A stretch of DNA of 64,000 nt from a virus: positions 32,001 to 96,000 of the IMG/VR virus record IMGVR_UViG_3300033182_000487; one strand, written 5' to 3'. Each line of letters begins with the position of its first letter. The stretch's first letter is position 1. Positions 4,180 to 54,766 of the stretch are shown one piece after another. The notes under the pieces are model-generated. The model ran no database searches. It was not told where the DNA came from and saw only the letters and a list, made by a program, of their open reading frames with translations. The translations under genes and the position numbers were made by a program.

Positions 4180-4229
4180 CGGTAGGCTCTCTATGCGCCG
4201 CTCAGGGTGAGGCTCGGTACTCTCTCTAT
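4180..4229 (+). promoter_or_regulatory. Two tandem late-class promoter motifs
   Basis: CGGTAG-gctct-CTAT (4180-4194) and CGGTAC-tctct-CTAT (4215-4229). Confidence 0.7.
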
Positions 4230-19197: not shown

Positions 19198-20162
19198 GCA
19201 TCAACCTCGTCTGGCGCACCGACGTTCACTTGTCCGACCGCGCACCGTCCAGCCGTACCGACGACTGGGCCGACGCCGTGTTCGACAAGTTGGGGCAGGT
19301 CCGTGATCTCGCCCGTGAGGTCAACGCCGCTGCCATCATCGACGGCGGTGACTTCTTCCACATCAAGTCCCCCGGTCGGAACAGCCATGCGCTCGTCAAC
19401 CGGACGGCAGAGCACCACAGCACCTATCCGTGCCCGGTCTACTGCACTCCGGGGAACCACGACGCGGTGTACGGCGACTACTCCTTCCTGCCTCAGCAGC
19501 CGTTGGGCGTCCTGTTCAGCACGGGTGTCTTCAAGCGTTTGTACGACGAGCATGAGGCTGTGTTTGAGGAGTTCCACGGGGTCAAGGTCCGCGTGGTCGG
19601 CATCCCGTACCACGGCACGTCCTACGACATGGAGCGGTTCACCAGCATCGAGAAAGGTGACGAGGACGTCCTGATCTGCGTGGCCCATGTGCTCGCCTCC
19701 CACAAGGGCGGCACCATGTTTGAGGGCGAAGACATCATCAAGTACGCCGACCTCGTGGACACCGCCCCCGACGTGTACCTGTTCGGTCACTGGCACAAGA
19801 ATCAGGGGGTCGAGGAGATCGGCGGCAAGCAGTTCGTGAACATCGGCTCCCTGACCCGTGGGTCACTCTCGCAGGACAACATGGACCGGGTGCCCGCTGC
19901 GGCTGTGCTCCGATGCACCGAGCAGGGGGTCGAGATCGAGGTTGTACCGCTCAACGTGCGCCCCGCCGAGGAGGTCTTCGACGTGGAAGGCCGCGCTCGA
20001 CAGGTCAAGCGGCAGGTGGAGATGGACTCGTTCGTCGAGGCTATCCGTGAAGCCCTCCAGCCCGCCGAAGGCGAGCAGACGCTGGCCGAAGCCGTGACGG
20101 GTATGGGTGATGTGCCCCACGAGGTTCGGGAGCGGGCACTGGCGTATCTGGAGAACACATGA
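19194..20162 (+). CDS. sbcD: SbcD/Mre11-like metallophosphoesterase nuclease
   Basis: TDVH, GGDFF, PGNHD, GHWH, NIGSL. Confidence 0.9.
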   Translation: MSINLVWRTDVHLSDRAPSSRTDDWADAVFDKLGQVRDLAREVNAAAIIDGGDFFHIKSPGRNSHALVNRTAEHHSTYPCPVYCTPGNHDAVYGDYSFLPQQPLGVLFSTGVFKRLYDEHEAVFEEFHGVKVRVVGIPYHGTSYDMERFTSIEKGDEDVLICVAHVLASHKGGTMFEGEDIIKYADLVDTAPDVYLFGHWHKNQGVEEIGGKQFVNIGSLTRGSLSQDNMDRVPAAAVLRCTEQGVEIEVVPLNVRPAEEVFDVEGRARQVKRQVEMDSFVEAIREALQPAEGEQTLAEAVTGMGDVPHEVRERALAYLENT

Positions 20163-23287: not shown

Positions 23288-23704
23288 ATGCGAACCCGAA
23301 GCGAGATCCAGCAGAAACTCAAGCAGGCCAAGTACCGGCATGTGAAGCGGATCTTGCGTGATCGGTTCCCCCGCGATCAGGACTGGCCGAAGCACGAGGT
23401 CGAGCAGATCAAGGACGAGTACCGGACCTTCTTCCAGGAGGCTCCGCTCCACGAGATCGCCCGCGAGTTCCCTGATGTCGCTGCCCTGATGTGGGTGCTG
23501 CAAGACCAGCCCGACCAGGCGCTGGCCGTCAACGGCACGATGGTGGGGGCCATGGGTGGGGTCATGCTGTGGGCAGACTCCCACGACGAGGCCGAGTACG
23601 CCCGTGACCTCATTGAGAAGGTCATGGCTCAGGCGCTCCAGCCGCCGACCGTGCGAGACCCCGACCCGGTGAAGAAATCTTGGTGGCAGAGGATCTTCGG
23701 ATGA
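23288..23704 (+). CDS. Hypothetical protein
   Basis: Typical codon usage; ends in amphipathic KKSWWQRIFG. Confidence 0.6.
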   Translation: MRTRSEIQQKLKQAKYRHVKRILRDRFPRDQDWPKHEVEQIKDEYRTFFQEAPLHEIAREFPDVAALMWVLQDQPDQALAVNGTMVGAMGGVMLWADSHDEAEYARDLIEKVMAQALQPPTVRDPDPVKKSWWQRIFG

Positions 23705-24222
23705 ACCCGCACCTGCTCGCCTCGGTTCAACACCCGTTCCAGAAGCGCCCCCTGATGCTCGATGGGGTTCCCGTACCCCGCGAGGCCGGGCCGTTCCTGA
23801 TCACCGCGACCCGCGAGTTGATGTGGGTGGAGCGAGCCTTCGGCAGCGGCTTCCTGCGACTGGCGGTGCGGAAGCAGACCACCGACCAGTTGTACAGCGA
23901 CCTGGTCGCCGAGATCGCCGAGGAAGGCGTCCGCCGTGACTGGGGGAACGTCCAACCGCCGACCATGGCAGGTGTGCTGGAGGGGATGAACTACCTCCAC
24001 TACTACGACCTCCCTGACCCCACGCTGCTGTACGGGTCTGAGTTCGACATCGGGGCCGCGCCTGACATGAACCGCGCCCCCGCTGACTGGCTTCCTCCCT
24101 CGTGGGCGGTGCTGGTCCCAGACCGAGCGTATGTGGGCACCGTCTACCTGTTTGGTGGCGGCTACCTCGGCGCGGTGGTTCACAACCCATCCCGAGGCGT
24201 GGTCGTCCTCCGAGGGGCATGA
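23701..24222 (+). CDS. Hypothetical protein
   Basis: ATGA coupling to the upstream gene. Confidence 0.6.
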   Translation: MNPHLLASVQHPFQKRPLMLDGVPVPREAGPFLITATRELMWVERAFGSGFLRLAVRKQTTDQLYSDLVAEIAEEGVRRDWGNVQPPTMAGVLEGMNYLHYYDLPDPTLLYGSEFDIGAAPDMNRAPADWLPPSWAVLVPDRAYVGTVYLFGGGYLGAVVHNPSRGVVVLRGA

Positions 24223-24273
24223 CTCGGTAGGTTTCTATGCGTAGGGTGTCGTATGACTCACGCGAGGATCCCC

Positions 24274-24369
24274 ATGACCCCCTCAGACCACAAAGCCCTG
24301 ATCCGGCTGGCGAGCACCCTTCCTGATGGGGACCGCCTTCGCCGTGCGATCCTGCGGAGCGTGAAGTAG
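24274..24369 (+). CDS. 31-aa peptide consisting only of the LIRLASTLP tag
   Basis: Hand translation MTPSDHKALIRLASTLPDGDRLRRAILRSVK; GAGG RBS; late-like motif CGGTAG-gttt-CTAT at 24225-24238. Confidence 0.75.
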   Translation: MTPSDHKALIRLASTLPDGDRLRRAILRSVK

Positions 24370-24397
24370 GGGGGTCTGATCTCCCCGCGAACGGGTA
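24369..24397 (+). promoter_or_regulatory. Middle-class promoter GGGGGGT-N17-GGGTA
   Basis: Exact consensus. Confidence 0.75.
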
Positions 24398-24406
24398 AGC
24401 CACTCC

Positions 24407-25129
24407 ATGCGAGAGTGGTTGACCAACGCCCTGCTGGACTCTGCTGAGTCCGTCCCCGAAGAAGCCGAAGGCTACGTCCTCGGACGAGGCTTGCCGTATC
24501 GACTGATGGAGGAGATGCGGGTGGGCATCTGGCGCTGGCCGGAAGCCCCGTGCCCCGACGACACCTTCCTCAAGCGGCATGGGGACAAGGGCTTCCAGGT
24601 GGATGGTTGGCTCTCGATCCCTCTGTGGTCACCGCGAGGTCGGATCGTCGGTGTCGAGTTCCGCCGCTGGGACGGCGAGAAATCCGTGTCGAAGTACTTC
24701 CTTCCCGACACGTCCTGGTCCCCGGTGTTCGCGGGCATGACCCCATCGACACTCAACCGCATCTGGAAGGGCGGGGACATCTGGCTCGTCGAGGGGGTCT
24801 TTGATCTCGCTCTGGCCCACGCTGTGCCACGCAAGGACGTGGTGCTCTCGTGCGGGGGTGCCAAGATCACGCCCAACCAGGTGGCCTTCATCCAGCGGTT
24901 CCTTGATCCTCGTGCGATGGTCCACGTCGCCTTCGACATGGACGAGACGGGACGCAAGATGGCCCTCGGCTACCAGCACCCGGACACCGGACGTCGGGTC
25001 TGGGGTGTGGTCGAGCGACTGGAGCGTGTAGGCGTCCGATGCCGCGACGTCCAGTACCGTGGCAAAGACCCCGGCGATGTTTGGGAGGTTGGGGGATCTG
25101 CTGGTTTGCGCCGTGCCTTCCGCCTGTAG
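24407..25129 (+). CDS. dnaG: DnaG-like primase catalytic/TOPRIM core
   Basis: Y..GRGL, IPL..PRGRIVG..R, KY, LVEGVFD, AFDMDETG, KDPGD; no zinc finger. Confidence 0.85.
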   Translation: MREWLTNALLDSAESVPEEAEGYVLGRGLPYRLMEEMRVGIWRWPEAPCPDDTFLKRHGDKGFQVDGWLSIPLWSPRGRIVGVEFRRWDGEKSVSKYFLPDTSWSPVFAGMTPSTLNRIWKGGDIWLVEGVFDLALAHAVPRKDVVLSCGGAKITPNQVAFIQRFLDPRAMVHVAFDMDETGRKMALGYQHPDTGRRVWGVVERLERVGVRCRDVQYRGKDPGDVWEVGGSAGLRRAFRL

Positions 25130-25676: not shown

Positions 25677-27119
25677 ATGGCCCTCGACACGAAGTATCGG
25701 CCCCAGACCTACGGACAGGTGCTGGGTCAGGAGGCCGCTGTGGCCGTCCTGCGGCAGTTCGTTGTCGAGGGCCGTGGATTCCATCAGTCCTACGTCTTCT
25801 GCGGACAGCACGGTTCCGGCAAGACCACCCTGGGGAGGCTCCTCGCCAGGGCCTTGCTGTGCGAGGCTCCCGTTGATGGGGAGCCTTGTGACCAGTGCTC
25901 GTCCTGCACGACCTTCCTGAGCGGCGACGTCCACGAGTGCTTCGTGGAACTGGATGCGGCAACGAAGTCCGGGAAGGCTGATCTCGCTCGCATCCTGGAG
26001 GACATCCAGTACTCCACGGTGTCGGGCAAGCGCCGCATCTACCTGTTCGACGAGTCCCATCGGTTGTCGAAGCAGGCGCTCGACGCCCTGTTGAAGCCGA
26101 TGGAGGACAACGTGCTGGGGTCGGAGGACAAGCGGCTCGTTTGCATCTTCTGCACCACCGAGCCGGACAAGATGGTCAGCACCATCTTCTCTCGCTGCGC
26201 CCCGGCCTTCGTGATCCGCTCCGCACCCCACGCGGAGATCGTGAAGCGGTTGGGGTGGATCTGCGAGCAGGAAGGCATCGAGGCTGACCCCGAGGCACTG
26301 GAACTGATCGTCGAGCAGTCGGAGTCCCACATCCGGGATGCGCTCAAGATGGTCGAGGGCGTGTCGATGCTGGGTGGGGTGACGCGGGAGAACGCGGCCA
26401 CCTACCTCCAGGTGGGGTCCAACGACGGGGTGTTGGACCTTCTGGATGCTCTGGGGTCTGACCTCTCGGCAGCGGTCGAACGCGCCACCAGCCTCTCGCG
26501 AGAGGTGAGCCCAGCCTCCGCTTACGAGCGTCTGGCCGAGGCTGCTATGCTGGCTTACCGGGTCCACCTCGGTGTGGCCGGACGAGTCCCGGCGAAGTGG
26601 GACGCGGAGAAGGTGGAGGTTTTGTCCTCACAGGGGTCTGCATGGTTGAATGTGGCTACTCGTTTCGCCGCACCCCCACACCGACCGACGAGACAGACAC
26701 TGGTGCTGGACGTTGCGACCGCGCACCACTTTTTCGGGGGTCAACTGCATCCACAGGCGGGGGGGATCCCCCTGCCACACCCCCCGCCTTCGGTTCCTAC
26801 GGCTTCCCCGCCCCCGTCCACCAGAGAAACCCGAACACCGTCAACACCTTGTGATCCTCCCGTGGGTAATGTCGGACATGCTTCCACAGACTCCTCAGCA
26901 CACCTCACCTCCTCCAACGTCTGGGTTGACCCCAGAGCGGTTGGTGGTGGTCCGCAGGATCGTGCTGCTCCCACCTCCAACCCAACCGCCCCTACCGGGT
27001 TGCACGTCCTCAATCCGAACGTCTTCCGTGAGTTGGTGCAGCACCACCTGCGGAGGCTGAGGCGTGGACGCACGGGATCAGACAACATGGGTGGTGCTGG
27101 AACTCAGCCATCATGGTGA
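25677..27119 (+). CDS. dnaX: DNA polymerase III gamma/tau clamp-loader ATPase
   Basis: KYRPQT..V.GQE, GQHGSGKTT, C..PCDQCSSC, ELDAA, FDESH, TIFSRC, RDAL. Confidence 0.92.
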   Translation: MALDTKYRPQTYGQVLGQEAAVAVLRQFVVEGRGFHQSYVFCGQHGSGKTTLGRLLARALLCEAPVDGEPCDQCSSCTTFLSGDVHECFVELDAATKSGKADLARILEDIQYSTVSGKRRIYLFDESHRLSKQALDALLKPMEDNVLGSEDKRLVCIFCTTEPDKMVSTIFSRCAPAFVIRSAPHAEIVKRLGWICEQEGIEADPEALELIVEQSESHIRDALKMVEGVSMLGGVTRENAATYLQVGSNDGVLDLLDALGSDLSAAVERATSLSREVSPASAYERLAEAAMLAYRVHLGVAGRVPAKWDAEKVEVLSSQGSAWLNVATRFAAPPHRPTRQTLVLDVATAHHFFGGQLHPQAGGIPLPHPPPSVPTASPPPSTRETRTPSTPCDPPVGNVGHASTDSSAHLTSSNVWVDPRAVGGGPQDRAAPTSNPTAPTGLHVLNPNVFRELVQHHLRRLRRGRTGSDNMGGAGTQPSW

Positions 27120-27603
27120 GCGAGCCGCCGAGGAGGGGATCCTTGAAGAAATCCTCCGTGATCACGCGGACCTGGACTACGACCACCCGATCTTCATCCC
27201 GTACCTGACCTACACCTACCAGGGGAAGCGGACCCTGCTCTCCGTCATGGAGGGCTACGTCTTCGTGGCGTCTGGCTTCGACGACGCCAGCCGCGACCAC
27301 TTTGCCCGATCCCCCTACATCAAGAAGATCCTCACCCGAGGGGCCAACCACTACTCCCCCTACGAGACCGTATCTCAGGCTTCGGTGGACTCTTTGCGCC
27401 ACCGACTACGCGAACTGATGGCGGTCGAGATCCGGGAGGGGATGGAGGTCCGTATTGTGGATGGGCCACTCAGTGGTATAAGTGGGAGCGTGGTGGGGGT
27501 GTTTGATACACATGCGACCCTCCTCGTAGAGATGCGGTCCATACGCGCCATCCAATATCTTCCGTGCTTCCTCCTACGACCCGTGAGTGACGAGCATGAG
27601 TAA
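27064..27603 (+). CDS. nusG: NusG/RfaH-like transcription factor
   Basis: WVVL, FIP, MEGYVFV (NGN domain) and KOW motif IREGMEVRIVDGPLSGISG. Confidence 0.8.
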   Translation: MDARDQTTWVVLELSHHGERAAEEGILEEILRDHADLDYDHPIFIPYLTYTYQGKRTLLSVMEGYVFVASGFDDASRDHFARSPYIKKILTRGANHYSPYETVSQASVDSLRHRLRELMAVEIREGMEVRIVDGPLSGISGSVVGVFDTHATLLVEMRSIRAIQYLPCFLLRPVSDEHE

Positions 27604-28237
27604 CTATTGGTGCAGCCACATTGTCTTAGACCCCTCCGACATCGAGCGCATGTTCTCCAACGAGGACGGCCTCTCCACCTTCCCCGGCTCCACGGAGGAA
27701 CTCTCGGACGAGAGCAAGGCCGAGTTGGAGCAGGTCAAGGGGGTGCTGGACCAGATCCCTCCCCGCGAAGCGGACTTCGTCGAACTCTACTTCTTCCAGC
27801 GCATCCGGCAGACCACCATCGCCTCGCTGTTCAACATCAGCCAGCCAACCGTCTGCTACCGCCTGCAACGAGCCGCAGCCCGGATCCGCTACCTCCTCGA
27901 CATGCCCAAGTACGACCCGTGGTTGATGGAGCAAGACCTCCGGGGCGTCCTCACTGACCCGAAGGACATCCAGATCATGATGGGCATGGTCGCCACGACC
28001 TGCCAGAGCGAGGTCGCGAAGGAACTCGGGGTCACGCAGGGCTTCGTCCGCCATCGGTACTTCCGCACCATCGGACGGCTCCAGAAGATGCGGGGGATGG
28101 AGCAGTACGTCCGGGTCTTTGAGCACGTCGCGGCGAACCTCAACATCCTCAAGGAGACCCACAGGTCGAAGTGGTCGGAGCCTGTGATCTACGTCGTCTC
28201 CGAGCACCCGACAGCGGTCGAAGCACAGCCCGCGTAG
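27596..28237 (+). CDS. Protein with tandem sigma-region-4-like HTH domains
   Basis: IPPREADFVELYFF..QTTIA.LFNISQPTV..RL.RA and Q.EVAKELGVTQ..VR.R. Confidence 0.75.
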   Translation: MSNYWCSHIVLDPSDIERMFSNEDGLSTFPGSTEELSDESKAELEQVKGVLDQIPPREADFVELYFFQRIRQTTIASLFNISQPTVCYRLQRAAARIRYLLDMPKYDPWLMEQDLRGVLTDPKDIQIMMGMVATTCQSEVAKELGVTQGFVRHRYFRTIGRLQKMRGMEQYVRVFEHVAANLNILKETHRSKWSEPVIYVVSEHPTAVEAQPA

Positions 28238-50175: not shown

Positions 50176-52137
50176 ATGGGTCTGGCTGACATCGCCGCCG
50201 CAGTCGGTCGGCGGTCCTCTACGTCTGACTCCGATGCCGTAGACATCATCACGTTCATCGAGGCTCCGTGGGGTCTCGGGCTCAAACTGTTCCCGGTGCA
50301 GAGGATCATCCTCAAGGCGCACTATGGAATGGCACTGGACGACAACCAACTGGGCATCCCCCTGGACATCCCGGTTGACCAGACGCACCCCCAGTGGAAC
50401 GACTCGTGGGCCGAGCACCTGGACGACGAGGGCTACTACAAGTGGCGCATCGTGGTCACCGACTTCCGCCGCGAGAACACCGAGTGCATGACAGAGGCGG
50501 GCTACCTCCGCTTCCTCTACGACGAGGGCCGGTGCAACATCCGGGAGGTCGTGCCCGGCCACCAGCGCCGGGAGATGGTCCTGTCCGTGGGCCGACGGTC
50601 CGGCAAGACCCTGATCACATCGTGCGTGGTCGCCTACGAGACGTACAGGCTGCTGCTCAAGGGCAACCCCCAGAAGGTCTACGGCTCGTCCCAGAGCAAC
50701 GTGATCCAGTTGATCTCGGTCGCGACCGACCGGGATCAGGCCGGGCTGCTGTACCGCGAAGCCAGCGGCCACTTCACGAAGTGCGACTTCTTCAAGCCCT
50801 ACGCAGCCAACGCCACTCAGTCCTTCGCGACGTTCCAGACCCCGTTCGACATCGAGCGGTACGGCTCCTACGCGGACAACCAGAAGGCCAGATACTCCAT
50901 CAACGTCACCTTCCGCTCCTGCGTGGCGAAGGGGCTCCGTGGTGGTGCCAACCTCCTGGTCGCGCTCGACGAGGTTGCTCACTTCGGGGAGAAGGGGCAG
51001 GCCAGTGCCGACGAGGTCTACCAGGCGGTCGAGCCGAGCACTCGTACATTTAGTCCCAAAGATCCAAAAAACCCAACCCGCCCGATTGGTGAGAACGAGG
51101 GTCGGATCATCCTGATCTCGTCACCGCTGGGCAAGCAGGGCCTTTTCTACAAGCAGTACCGGTTGGGCTTCGGCAACAACAAGGCCGCCGACAACCTGAT
51201 CTGCATCCAGGCCCCGACCTGGGAGGTCAACCCGACGGTGCCTGCCGAGACGTTCGTGGCGTCCTACCTCAAAGACCCCAACGTCTTCTTCACCGAGTTC
51301 GGGGCCGAGTTTAGCGACCGCACGAAGGGGTGGATCACGGACAAGGCTGATCTCGTCGCCTGCATCGACCCAGACCTGCGCCCGAAGCACAGTGCCCCTG
51401 CCCGGATGCCCCACTTCATGGGCCTCGACGTCGCGTTGGTGGGCGACTACACGTCCGTCGCCATCGGACACAACGACGCCAACGGCAACGTGGTCCTCGA
51501 CTACATCGACAGGATCAAGGCGGGCGAGGGGGACTACGAGCACCTCGACCGACTGGAGTTCGACGACGTGGCCGACTGGGTCTATGACCTCAGCCGCAAG
51601 TTCTACATCAGCGAGGGCATGTTCGACCAATGGTCCGGCATCCCCATGGAGCAGGCGTTGAAGAAGCGCGGCCTCTCCACGCTCAAGTCGGTCCACCACA
51701 CCCGGAACCTGTCGAGCCAGATGTTCCAGAACTTCAAGAACCTCATGCTCGACAAGAAGATGACCCTGTACGACTGGCCCATCCCGGACGGGGATGACCA
51801 CTCGGCTCACATCGCCGAGTTGCTGGAACTCCAGGCCGAGTTCATCAGCAAGTACATCATCAAGGTCGAGGCCCCCAAGGTCGAAGGCAAGCACGACGAC
51901 CTCTCGGACGCCCTGGTCCGCATGGTGTGGGTCGCCACGAACAACTCGGCGAAGCGGGTAGTCCTCGCCGGGCACCGCCGAGGGAACATGGGCCCCTCGG
52001 CTTCCTCTGGGGCGGGATCACGGTTCGGTCGTGTCCCTACCTCGCTCAAGGGTCGCTCTGGCTCTCACCCGGACCGCCAGATCCCGAAGACGCGGCGCGG
52101 GGGTGGACGAGGTTGCGGCGGTTCCGGTAGGCGGTAG
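50176..52137 (+). CDS. terL: Terminase large subunit
   Basis: LFPVQ, GRRSGKT, ALDEVAH, ISSP, MGLDVA, HDDLSDA. Confidence 0.92.
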   Translation: MGLADIAAAVGRRSSTSDSDAVDIITFIEAPWGLGLKLFPVQRIILKAHYGMALDDNQLGIPLDIPVDQTHPQWNDSWAEHLDDEGYYKWRIVVTDFRRENTECMTEAGYLRFLYDEGRCNIREVVPGHQRREMVLSVGRRSGKTLITSCVVAYETYRLLLKGNPQKVYGSSQSNVIQLISVATDRDQAGLLYREASGHFTKCDFFKPYAANATQSFATFQTPFDIERYGSYADNQKARYSINVTFRSCVAKGLRGGANLLVALDEVAHFGEKGQASADEVYQAVEPSTRTFSPKDPKNPTRPIGENEGRIILISSPLGKQGLFYKQYRLGFGNNKAADNLICIQAPTWEVNPTVPAETFVASYLKDPNVFFTEFGAEFSDRTKGWITDKADLVACIDPDLRPKHSAPARMPHFMGLDVALVGDYTSVAIGHNDANGNVVLDYIDRIKAGEGDYEHLDRLEFDDVADWVYDLSRKFYISEGMFDQWSGIPMEQALKKRGLSTLKSVHHTRNLSSQMFQNFKNLMLDKKMTLYDWPIPDGDDHSAHIAELLELQAEFISKYIIKVEAPKVEGKHDDLSDALVRMVWVATNNSAKRVVLAGHRRGNMGPSASSGAGSRFGRVPTSLKGRSGSHPDRQIPKTRRGGGRGCGGSGRR

Positions 52138-52755: not shown

Positions 52756-53073
52756 TTGTCCCGTCTGCGTGCCACATTGTCTCCGACCGAGACAGACCGA
52801 GAGATTCAACTGGCCCTCGACCGAGCGGCCCGTGAGATCGAGTCTGCTCTCCGCGTGGCGTCGTCCGCTCCCATGGAGAGACATCGCAAGCGCGGCACGT
52901 TGAGTGACCTCCAGGGGGCACTGGACCAGATCACTCGGGTTCGGTATCTCAGCCCGGCGCGTCCCGAGCGCGAGTCCTACGAGGACTGGAAGGCGCGGCA
53001 TGACAAGCGGGATCAAGAGCGGCGTGCGCGGCGCGAGCAGCGCGCTCTGAGGGAGCAGACCGATGTCGGATAA
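52756..53073 (+). CDS. Hypothetical basic protein
   Basis: TTG start; fills the gap before the portal gene. Confidence 0.45.
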   Translation: MSRLRATLSPTETDREIQLALDRAAREIESALRVASSAPMERHRKRGTLSDLQGALDQITRVRYLSPARPERESYEDWKARHDKRDQERRARREQRALREQTDVG

Positions 53074-54766
53074 GAACGAGGGCCAGCCCGTCGGGAAGGT
53101 CCGCAACGGCGACGGGAAGAAGAAGGCGAAGACAGGCAAGCCTCGCAAGATCACGTCGTCCATGATGCGGGCGAAGACCGCGTCCTTCGGAGCCCTCGGC
53201 AACGGTGGGTCCATGGAGGGCATCGGCGGCAACTTCTACTCGCCTGAGTTGTCCACCGACTTCCTGGAGTTGCCTCAGAGCCTCCACGAGCAGTGGAACT
53301 ACTACCGCTTCTTCTACCGCACGGAGCCCTTCGTGGGTCAGGCGGTGGACCTCCACACGGAACTGCCGATCAGCAAGGTCCGCATCGGCATGGCGAAGGC
53401 GAAGAACCGTGATCTCGCCGTGGCTGCGACCCGCTTCTGCGAGCGTTGGGCGCAGCGCATCAACCTGCTCGACCGCCTCCTGACCATCACCCACGAGCGG
53501 AACCTGATCGGGGTGGTGAACATCTGGTGCGAGGACGCCAACGAGGAGATGCCTCGTGAGGTCCGCGAGGAGGAGGTCCGCATCCTCAAGGAAGACGGCG
53601 AGGCCGTCGAGGAATGGCAACTCCGAGGAGATGCCGACGAGCGCGCCGTGGCGTGGCTCAAGAAGAACTACAAGGGCTGGACCAGTGTGCGGGTGTTGCC
53701 ACCCGAGCAGATCAAGATGCAGTCGTTCAACTTCACGGACGAGCGCATCTTTGAGTTGATCCCGGACAGCAAGACCAAGGCCATCATCGAGAAGTACCAG
53801 CAGGGCGACAAGGACGCGAAGCGCATCGTGGAGTCGATGCCTCCTGCTGTGGTCAAGGCGGTCGTCGAGGGGTCCAACATCCCGCTCAACACTGACCCCA
53901 TGGCGGGGTCATACATCTACTGTCTGGTGAACCGGAAGTCCGACTACGACCCGGAGGGCCGCTCCATCCTGGGTCGGTGCATGAGGATCCTCGTGTACCG
54001 GGACAAACTCCGGCAGGCCCAGACCAGCATCGCCTCCCGGCACATGACTCCGATTCGGATCGTCTACGGGGAAGACCTCGACGCGGCTGATGTCGAGGCG
54101 TTGCGCGAGCAAGTGGACATGGCCCTGCAAGACCCTGACTACTCCATCATCGCGAACTTCCAGATCAACTGGGAGGAGATGGGTGCGGACCAGCGGTTGC
54201 TCGACCTCAATGGCGAGTACGACCTGACCGACCGCCAGTTGTACGCGGGCCTCGGGGTCACCGAGGGGTTGCTCTCGGGTGAGTCCTCCTACAGCGGGGA
54301 CAGGATCAACCTGGAGGTCATCAACACCCGGTACATGCTCCTGCGCGAGCAGTTGCAGGACTTCGTCGAGAAGCACCTGTTTGAGCCGATGTGCCGTCGC
54401 ATGGGTTTCATCGAGGAGGACGAGGACGGAGAGGAGCGCGTCGTCGTGCCCACGCTGTCGTTCACCCGACTGGCTCTGCGGGACAACCGAGACACCTTCG
54501 ACGCCCTGTACAACCTGTACCAGAAGGGCTCTCTTGACGTGGACACCATCCTGGAGTTGCTCAACCTCGACCCCGTGGCGGTGCGCGAACGCATCGAGCG
54601 CGACCTGTTCACGGTCAACGACCCCACGTTCAACGAGGTGCTGCGCGGCGTCTACGGCGACACGGGCCGGGCGATTGCCGAGAACTCCGACGCTGCCGAG
54701 AAGATCGCGAAGGTGCTGGGGCTCAAGTACGAGCCACCGAAGGAGGAAGGCGGGGGCCGCTTCTGA
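53063..54766 (+). CDS. Portal protein
   Basis: FY..EPFV..AVDLH.ELP, GRSIL.R, P..IV, GLGV...LL.GE.SYS; located after terL. Confidence 0.8.
   Translation: MSDKNEGQPVGKVRNGDGKKKAKTGKPRKITSSMMRAKTASFGALGNGGSMEGIGGNFYSPELSTDFLELPQSLHEQWNYYRFFYRTEPFVGQAVDLHTELPISKVRIGMAKAKNRDLAVAATRFCERWAQRINLLDRLLTITHERNLIGVVNIWCEDANEEMPREVREEEVRILKEDGEAVEEWQLRGDADERAVAWLKKNYKGWTSVRVLPPEQIKMQSFNFTDERIFELIPDSKTKAIIEKYQQGDKDAKRIVESMPPAVVKAVVEGSNIPLNTDPMAGSYIYCLVNRKSDYDPEGRSILGRCMRILVYRDKLRQAQTSIASRHMTPIRIVYGEDLDAADVEALREQVDMALQDPDYSIIANFQINWEEMGADQRLLDLNGEYDLTDRQLYAGLGVTEGLLSGESSYSGDRINLEVINTRYMLLREQLQDFVEKHLFEPMCRRMGFIEEDEDGEERVVVPTLSFTRLALRDNRDTFDALYNLYQKGSLDVDTILELLNLDPVAVRERIERDLFTVNDPTFNEVLRGVYGDTGRAIAENSDAAEKIAKVLGLKYEPPKEEGGGRF

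Follow-up and report, generated by a model that had tools for sequence, protein, structure and literature searches.

In phage T4, the capsid-targeting sequence (CTS) of IPI-III and Alt is removed by the prohead protease gp21. The scaffolding protein of phage P22 has a C-terminal, coat-binding helix-turn-helix (PDB 2GP8; 8I1V chain H), and the cargo-loading peptides of encapsulins are short, mostly unstructured and C-terminal. At the DNA level, solo LTRs and other solo repeats are left by recombination between flanking direct repeats, and deletions between short direct repeats occur in phage genomes. Between direct repeats, deletion is generally much more frequent than re-insertion.

The locus described here holds a mini-gene of 31 codons that encodes a single copy of a widespread peptide tag. 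With a probability of roughly three in four, this mini-gene is a solo tag that arose by in-frame deletion between the N- and C-terminal tags of a longer accessory gene and persists as a neutral remnant. It lies in a 113,148-bp IMG/VR virus record with 63.6% G+C, of which bases 32001-96000 (64,000 nucleotides) are called the window. CheckV places the completeness of the record at about 25%, which makes it a fragment of a phage of several hundred kilobases, and its single match in the phage collection is a 485-kb uncultured phage.

A portable tag on diverse phage proteins

The tag is a module of about 30 residues with the core (S/A)D-R-x-A-L-I-R-L-A-S-T-L-P-x-G-S-x-E-R-K-A-I-L. Nine copies occur in the 113-kb record, scoring 51-67 bits, with the next best match at only 8 bits. 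Three of them belong to an 878-aa protein (N-terminus, middle and C-terminus), four are N-terminal and one is C-terminal in other proteins, and the last is the mini-gene itself. Identity among the nine copies is 0.68, 0.76 and 0.39 at codon positions 1, 2 and 3, indicating conservation of the tag at the peptide level and not recent copying of its DNA. Using a profile built from six copies, a search of 1.84 billion proteins returned 1,430 representative clusters at E <= 0.001, which come from marine and aquatic metagenomes. The 237 tag-bearing proteins that were fetched hold 325 tags (214 N-terminal, 75 internal and 36 C-terminal), and one third of these proteins carry two or three. Related huge-phage records contain up to 23 copies each, and the tagged cargo is diverse and mostly without a Pfam family.

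AlphaFold2 modeling of the mini-gene peptide, with a 95-row alignment, predicts a helix at residues 3-14, a loop at LPxGS and a second helix at residues 21-30, with a mean pLDDT of 94. A complex prediction for two copies of the peptide (91-row alignment) scored 0.02, which is evidence neither way. The tag matched no Pfam family at E <= 0.1, PDB sequences matched it no better than E = 0.066, Foldseek returned nothing at E <= 0.001, and the ESM Atlas gave no usable match; the literature, searched for descriptions of such a tag in huge phages, yielded nothing relevant. Within the libraries and literature searched, the tag family appears to be undescribed. A SAP/HeH/Rho_N-type DNA-binding motif was also considered; family and structure searches gave it no support, and the idea was dropped.

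Sequences next to the tag show recurrent patterns. Directly after it, K is found in 150 of 287 cases, and two residues further on A is found in 124 and S in 44 of the 287 (K-K-x-A/S). Within the 237 tag-bearing proteins, internal and C-terminal tags come after K/R-rich stretches whose last residues are A-S-D. To judge from these patterns, both the K-K-x-A/S residues and the A-S-D stretches are possible processing sites.

The mini-gene and its setting

The mini-gene occupies 24274-24369 on the plus strand, from an ATG at 24274 to a TAG at 24367-24369, and consists of one complete helix-loop-helix tag (66.6 bits against the tag profile). A Shine-Dalgarno sequence, GAGGA, can be read 5 nt before the ATG (24264-24268, plus strand). 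An in-frame ATG at 24253 provides an alternative start that would add seven residues (38 aa); homologous long genes are called from the MTPSD start, not from this extra upstream ATG. The mini-gene keeps a good RBS and every invariant tag residue, and its GC3 is about 0.77 by hand count, with accepted genes of the window mostly at 0.75-0.93. Between 23600 and 25200, searches found neither an Rfam match nor a sigma-70-type promoter, nor any convincing terminator. None of the 20 sequencing runs with close strains is an RNA run.

Upstream lies g180, a conserved 180-aa gene without a Pfam family (23680-24222, plus strand), whose synteny was followed by tblastn in 12 related IMG/VR loci. Downstream, a primase-like Toprim gene (24407-25129, plus strand; Pfam Toprim_2, E = 5.7e-6) serves as the synteny anchor and is found in 19 related loci. 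The neighborhood is one of replication and recombination genes, including the Toprim gene, a clamp-loader subunit, a PD-(D/E)XK nuclease and an Mre11/SbcC-like pair. The initial annotation had described a 31-aa ORF with an RBS and no cargo, set inside a replication operon and starting almost like the 878-aa protein. All of this agrees with the present analysis, and the resemblance to the 878-aa protein comes down to the same module of about 30 aa in both.

Directly after the g180 stop, the mini-gene is preceded by a promoter-like motif, CGGTAG-N4-CTAT (CGGTAGGTTTCTAT; 24225-24238, plus strand). With a 5-nt spacer, CGGTAG-N5-CTAT, the motif occurs 12 times in the window, against 0.01 copies expected by chance, and 17 times in the whole record. 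The window sites, on the plus strand, are at 4180, 8250, 28246, 29046, 35601, 37286, 46821, 47329, 52132, 54769, 55446 and 59099. Every site precedes a start on the coding strand by 25-45 nt, the starts in the window have a good RBS, and the genes served include those beside the large terminase (50176-52137) and beside the portal (53063-54766). CGGTAG-N5-CTAT looks like a phage-specific, late-type candidate promoter. A 4-nt spacer is found at the mini-gene only, which bears out the earlier description of a late-like motif of its own with an N4 spacer. The 17 other sites of the record and all four population variants have N5, the variants reading CGGTAGGGATTCTAT at the mini-gene's own motif site. 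Judged against these four variants, the window's motif alone has lost one spacer base.

Two further genes follow the clamp-loader gene. Directly after it, 27064-27603 encodes a NusG-like protein, a weak match at E = 0.0017. At the same place, 27587-28237 encodes a protein with sigma-70 region 4 (E = 4e-12), which is a candidate reader of CGGTAG-N5-CTAT.

A site that receives tagged genes

Twelve related IMG/VR loci share the gene order g383-g212-g138-g180-Toprim-metallopeptidase-clamp loader. In nine of the 12, g180 ends about 30 nt or less before the Toprim gene. These nine include L002, the closest relative (95% aa identity in Toprim), which is without an insert. Relative to L002, the window carries 157 additional nt precisely at the junction of the g180 stop and the Toprim gene, an insert that starts with the promoter motif and ends with the mini-gene stop. 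In the alignment of the two, an imperfect duplication of about 12 nt of the g180 3' end flanks this insert. The left copy, CGAGGGGCATGA (24211-24222, plus strand), is the duplicated g180 3' end at the left edge, and the copy at the right edge, GGGGGGTCTGA (24369-24379, plus strand), is that of the original g180 3' end; L002 has a single CGGGGGGTCTGA in place of the duplicated end.

The insert is absent in L002, L005, L007-L011 and L013, and the mini-gene is absent from the g180/Toprim locus in all 12 relatives. In L003 (1736-4000) and, identically placed, L004, an insert of about 2 kb carries the promoter motif and, behind it, the gene for a 412-aa protein that has two tags, and in L006 (1937-4000) an insert of about 2 kb at the junction holds three tagged ORFs. 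The presence of different tagged genes at one junction marks the g180/Toprim site as a hotspot for tagged accessory genes. In L012 (3730-4000), g180 is longer by about 70 residues at its C-terminus and takes up the space before the Toprim gene. Five related records gave 48 tag matches, none of them a tag-bearing open frame shorter than 112 aa; the exact 31-aa peptide has no match among about 15 billion collected proteins; and four related records, searched for a DNA donor of the cassette, gave short tag matches only.

Long alleles in near-identical strains

Close strains are present in 20 DNA runs from nine studies (marine, estuary, aquatic and vent). Four runs, each from a different study, supplied Logan contigs with 95-99% identity to the window. 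The contigs were compared with positions 23700-24900, and no contig of these runs bridges the mini ORF in the window's form. The 4102-nt X1 contig matches 23700-24354, continues with 814 additional nt and then matches 24338-24900, while the X4 contig matches 24295-24354 and, after 815 additional nt, the same 24338-24900. The overlap of the two aligned pieces in X1 and X4 (24338-24354, plus strand) represents a 17-nt identity of tag 2 and tag 3 in the cargo-B alleles. The X7 contig matches up to 24314, adds 562 nt and then matches 24295-24342, and the X3 contig covers 24276-24315 without a mismatch before running on as tag 1 of the long allele. Loose contig ends show a tag leading into cargo (AGLSRTADEH after ...AIL) and a third tag ending in ...RRAILRSVK.

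Three longer proteins, P0241, P0011 and P0238, share their start and end with the mini-gene peptide. P0241 (306 aa) has the arrangement tag 1-cargo A-tag and would belong to the g180/Toprim locus by its identical ends. P0011 (308 aa) has a tag 1/2 hybrid, cargo B and tag 3, and is encoded on a 4102-nt Logan contig equal in length to X1. P0238 (506 aa) combines both modules as tag 1-cargo A-tag 2-cargo B-tag 3, and its common part with P0011 is 97% identical by BLASTP.

Comparison with P0241 divides the mini-gene into two parts. Codons 1-14 (MTPSDHKALIRLAS; 24274-24315, plus strand) are identical in product to residues 1-14 of P0241, the N-terminal tag of the long alleles. Codons 15-31 and the stop (24316-24369, plus strand) agree fully with the C-terminal P0241 tag; the corresponding part of P0238 is a tag 2/tag 3 mosaic. 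Mini-gene residues 8-31 equal the last 24 residues of P0241, so that the two matches overlap at ALIRLAS (residues 8-14). This crossover zone (24295-24315, plus strand), common to the N- and C-terminal tags of P0241, is at most 21 nt long, an upper bound taken from the protein sequence. The mini-gene peptide is thus residues 1-14 of P0241 joined to its last 24, as expected for the product of an in-frame tag-to-tag deletion.

The long units also have relatives of their own. P0037, known solely from other contigs, shares 58% (P0238) to 82% (P0241) identity with the unit of tag 1 and cargo A, the odd second half of tag 1 included, and P0240 shares 79% identity with cargo B. These relatives indicate that the long units predate this population and that the mini-gene is the derived form. 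The cargo is absent elsewhere in the 113-kb record and in four related records, no relatives of P0238 or P0241 were found in the viral or genome contig collections, and exact patterns from the loose contig ends have no match in viral contigs. The single metagenome contig that matched a loose-end pattern (L021) was discarded as an unrelated chance match. In cargo B, a long Gly/Ala-rich hydrophobic stretch lies at about residues 345-400 of P0238 and is also found in P0011 and P0240. By its composition, this stretch may form membrane helices, which would fit an ejected or membrane-acting virion protein.

Origin of the mini-gene

The proposed pathway begins with an accessory, late-type gene of the form tag-cargo-tag, inserted between g180 and the Toprim gene. 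Recombination between its N- and C-terminal tags would then have removed the cargo in frame, and, as the tags share one frame, this deletion would have rebuilt a single intact tag behind the original promoter and RBS. One tag-to-tag event in a P0241-type allele would give the exact ORF of the window, and two events would be needed from a P0238-type allele. Transcription of the resulting mini-gene may continue, at least through read-through, and its 31-aa helix-loop-helix may be translated and could even retain some activity, but the mini-gene is most likely a neutral remnant. We infer both the direction of the change, as a deletion, and the neutrality of its product.

Several features correspond to those of a solo repeat. 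Close relatives have a long form whose outer flanks are the same and whose tags are separated by 562-815 extra nt. The remnant is chimeric, its left part coming from the left tag, its right part from the right tag and its junction lying in sequence common to both. The comparisons with P0037 and P0240 point to the long form as ancestral. Relatives do not conserve the ORF as a stand-alone gene, as they would a selected small ORF. P0011 has tag-2-type bases at 24306 and 24312, leaving a shared run of about 11 nt at its junction. The junction of this X1 hybrid is located 5' of 24306 and that of the window 3' of 24312, and this difference suggests independent events.

Cargo loss is also seen at another tagged gene, outside the window. 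At 19588-19761 of G000 (L023:1589-1762), a second cargo-less tag ORF encodes 57 aa, a tag with a 23-residue tail, where the closest relative, G001, has a 105-aa tagged gene. This replacement indicates that loss of cargo at tags recurs. Just upstream of the 57-aa ORF, G000 has an extra tagged gene of 168 aa. Elsewhere, tag-only or near tag-only ORFs such as P0061 (34 aa, 4 contigs) and P0207 (42 aa) make up about 1-2% of the listed clusters, a rate that fits sporadic cargo loss; such ORFs could reflect recurrent decay or a small functional class. The P0207 cluster also contains P0239, an unrelated protein of 720 aa, probably through a clustering oddity, and this pairing was set aside as evidence of truncation.

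The source strain might itself have a long tag-cargo-tag gene that was collapsed across the repeated tag during assembly. The mini form appears in no independent contig, its exact peptide occurs in no other record and its junction lies inside the repeat, all of which would fit such an artefact. However, the repeats involved are short, at most 21 nt (ALIRLAS) and 17 nt (24338-24354), and no other tag in the genome has more than 14 nt in common with the mini-gene. Lengths of 17-21 nt are at or below the smallest common assembler k-mers and far below final k values; the Logan assemblies use k=31. P0011, an analogous collapsed form with a shared run of only about 11 nt, was still assembled, in two Logan contigs, so deletions of this kind occur in nature. 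An artefact is accordingly improbable. A purposely made free tag peptide, which would occupy or compete for the tag receptor (the head interior, a scaffold or another hub) and so tune cargo loading, is very improbable, even though the intact ORF has a good RBS and every invariant tag residue, the fold of the peptide is confidently predicted and other tag-only ORFs exist. Frame, RBS and invariant residues carry no weight as signs of selection, because a tag-to-tag deletion recreates them as automatic by-products. The mini-gene is missing from the closest relative and from all other relatives at the locus, the longer allele from which it derives persists in the same population, and the spacer of its promoter departs from the consensus (N4 against N5). 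The competing peptide proposed in the initial annotation thus gained no supporting evidence; at most, a free solo tag could serve as a packaged blank or as a weak receptor competitor, and nothing suggests that it is maintained for such a purpose.

It is very improbable, too, that the solo tag and its promoter form an empty slot where tag-flanked cargo re-enters by homologous recombination. Alleles with cargo A, cargo B, both or none have identical ends, P0238 looks like a fusion of an A unit and a B unit at their common middle tag (the units alone being represented by P0241/P0037 and P0240), and in L003/L004 and L006 this intergenic site is occupied by other tagged genes. Yet the direction of change is not readable from these allele data, no capture event was observed, the homology tracts are only about 20 nt long, and deletion between direct repeats greatly outweighs re-insertion. 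A related proposal of the initial annotation, an empty mobile cassette able to capture cargo, is only partly sustained. There is indeed a promoter and tag without cargo, and cargo does vary at the tags (A, B, A+B or none), but signs of mobility are lacking: neither the closest relative nor any other has the cassette at the site, the cassette's spacer is off-consensus, and it probably arose by cargo loss. The comparison suggested there, a search in related phages for the same cassette fused to cargo, did reveal tag-cargo genes in near-identical strains, yet these point to cargo loss. The finding that it would have counted as a refutation, a decayed stub of one fixed gene, comes close to the origin favored here, in which the mini-gene is the remnant of a longer gene kept whole in near-identical strains.

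Significance and comparison with known systems

As a deletion remnant, the mini-gene is a scar of a known kind and matters little by itself. Its wider value lies in the widespread, apparently undescribed helix-loop-helix tag found on many accessory proteins of uncultured marine huge phages. At one locus in one population, all four combinations of two cargo modules occur between identical tag ends, providing a case of in-frame modular reshuffling. The locus also carries a warning that "clean" tag-only ORFs can arise without selection.

On the simplest reading, the tag is probably an address or docking label that would bring cargo to a common structure, probably the assembling head, possibly followed by proteolytic removal. 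This reading draws on several properties: the tag is portable, folded and basic, sits at protein ends, is often present in several copies and on unrelated proteins, shares its upstream motif with genes beside the terminase and portal, and is followed by K-K-x-A. If the tag is a head-loading signal, the natural solo tag offers a ready-made minimal version of it. A broader idea, possible but doubtful, is that tags in marine huge phages work at two levels, as peptide labels to a common destination and as in-frame DNA joints for cargo loss, fusion and possible regain, with the solo tag as the empty state of a natural cargo-cassette slot that could contain cargo A, cargo B, both or neither among strains that otherwise hardly differ.

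The T4 CTS resembles the tag as a short, portable peptide on unrelated proteins, and the K-K-x-A that follows the tag would be a candidate counterpart of its processing site. The two have no sequence relation, and the tag is a folded helix-loop-helix of 30 aa that can be N-terminal, C-terminal or internal, with up to three copies per protein. Encapsulin cargo-loading peptides are also terminal peptides that mark diverse cargo for an HK97-fold shell; they differ from the tag in sequence, and they are short, mostly unstructured and C-terminal. The coat-binding element of the P22 scaffolding protein is, like the tag, a basic helix-loop-helix of about 30 residues. VIA-align of the tag model gave Z 4.1 (rmsd 1.5, 28 residues) to 8i1v_H and Z 3.5 to 2gp8_A, values that tie with many unrelated hairpins (1,608 chains at Z >= 2, none at 5), so the fold match of the model is only compatible with such a role. 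The P22 element shows no sequence similarity to the tag and is part of a scaffold, not a natural tag on many proteins.

For the mini-gene itself, solo LTRs provide the parallel. In both, a unit between two direct repeats is lost and one chimeric repeat is left, the 5' part of the mini-gene coming from the left tag and its 3' part from the right. Unlike solo LTRs, the repeats here are short coding modules (about 90 nt, with about 20 nt identical) within one ORF, and the scar is an intact ORF with a promoter and an RBS.
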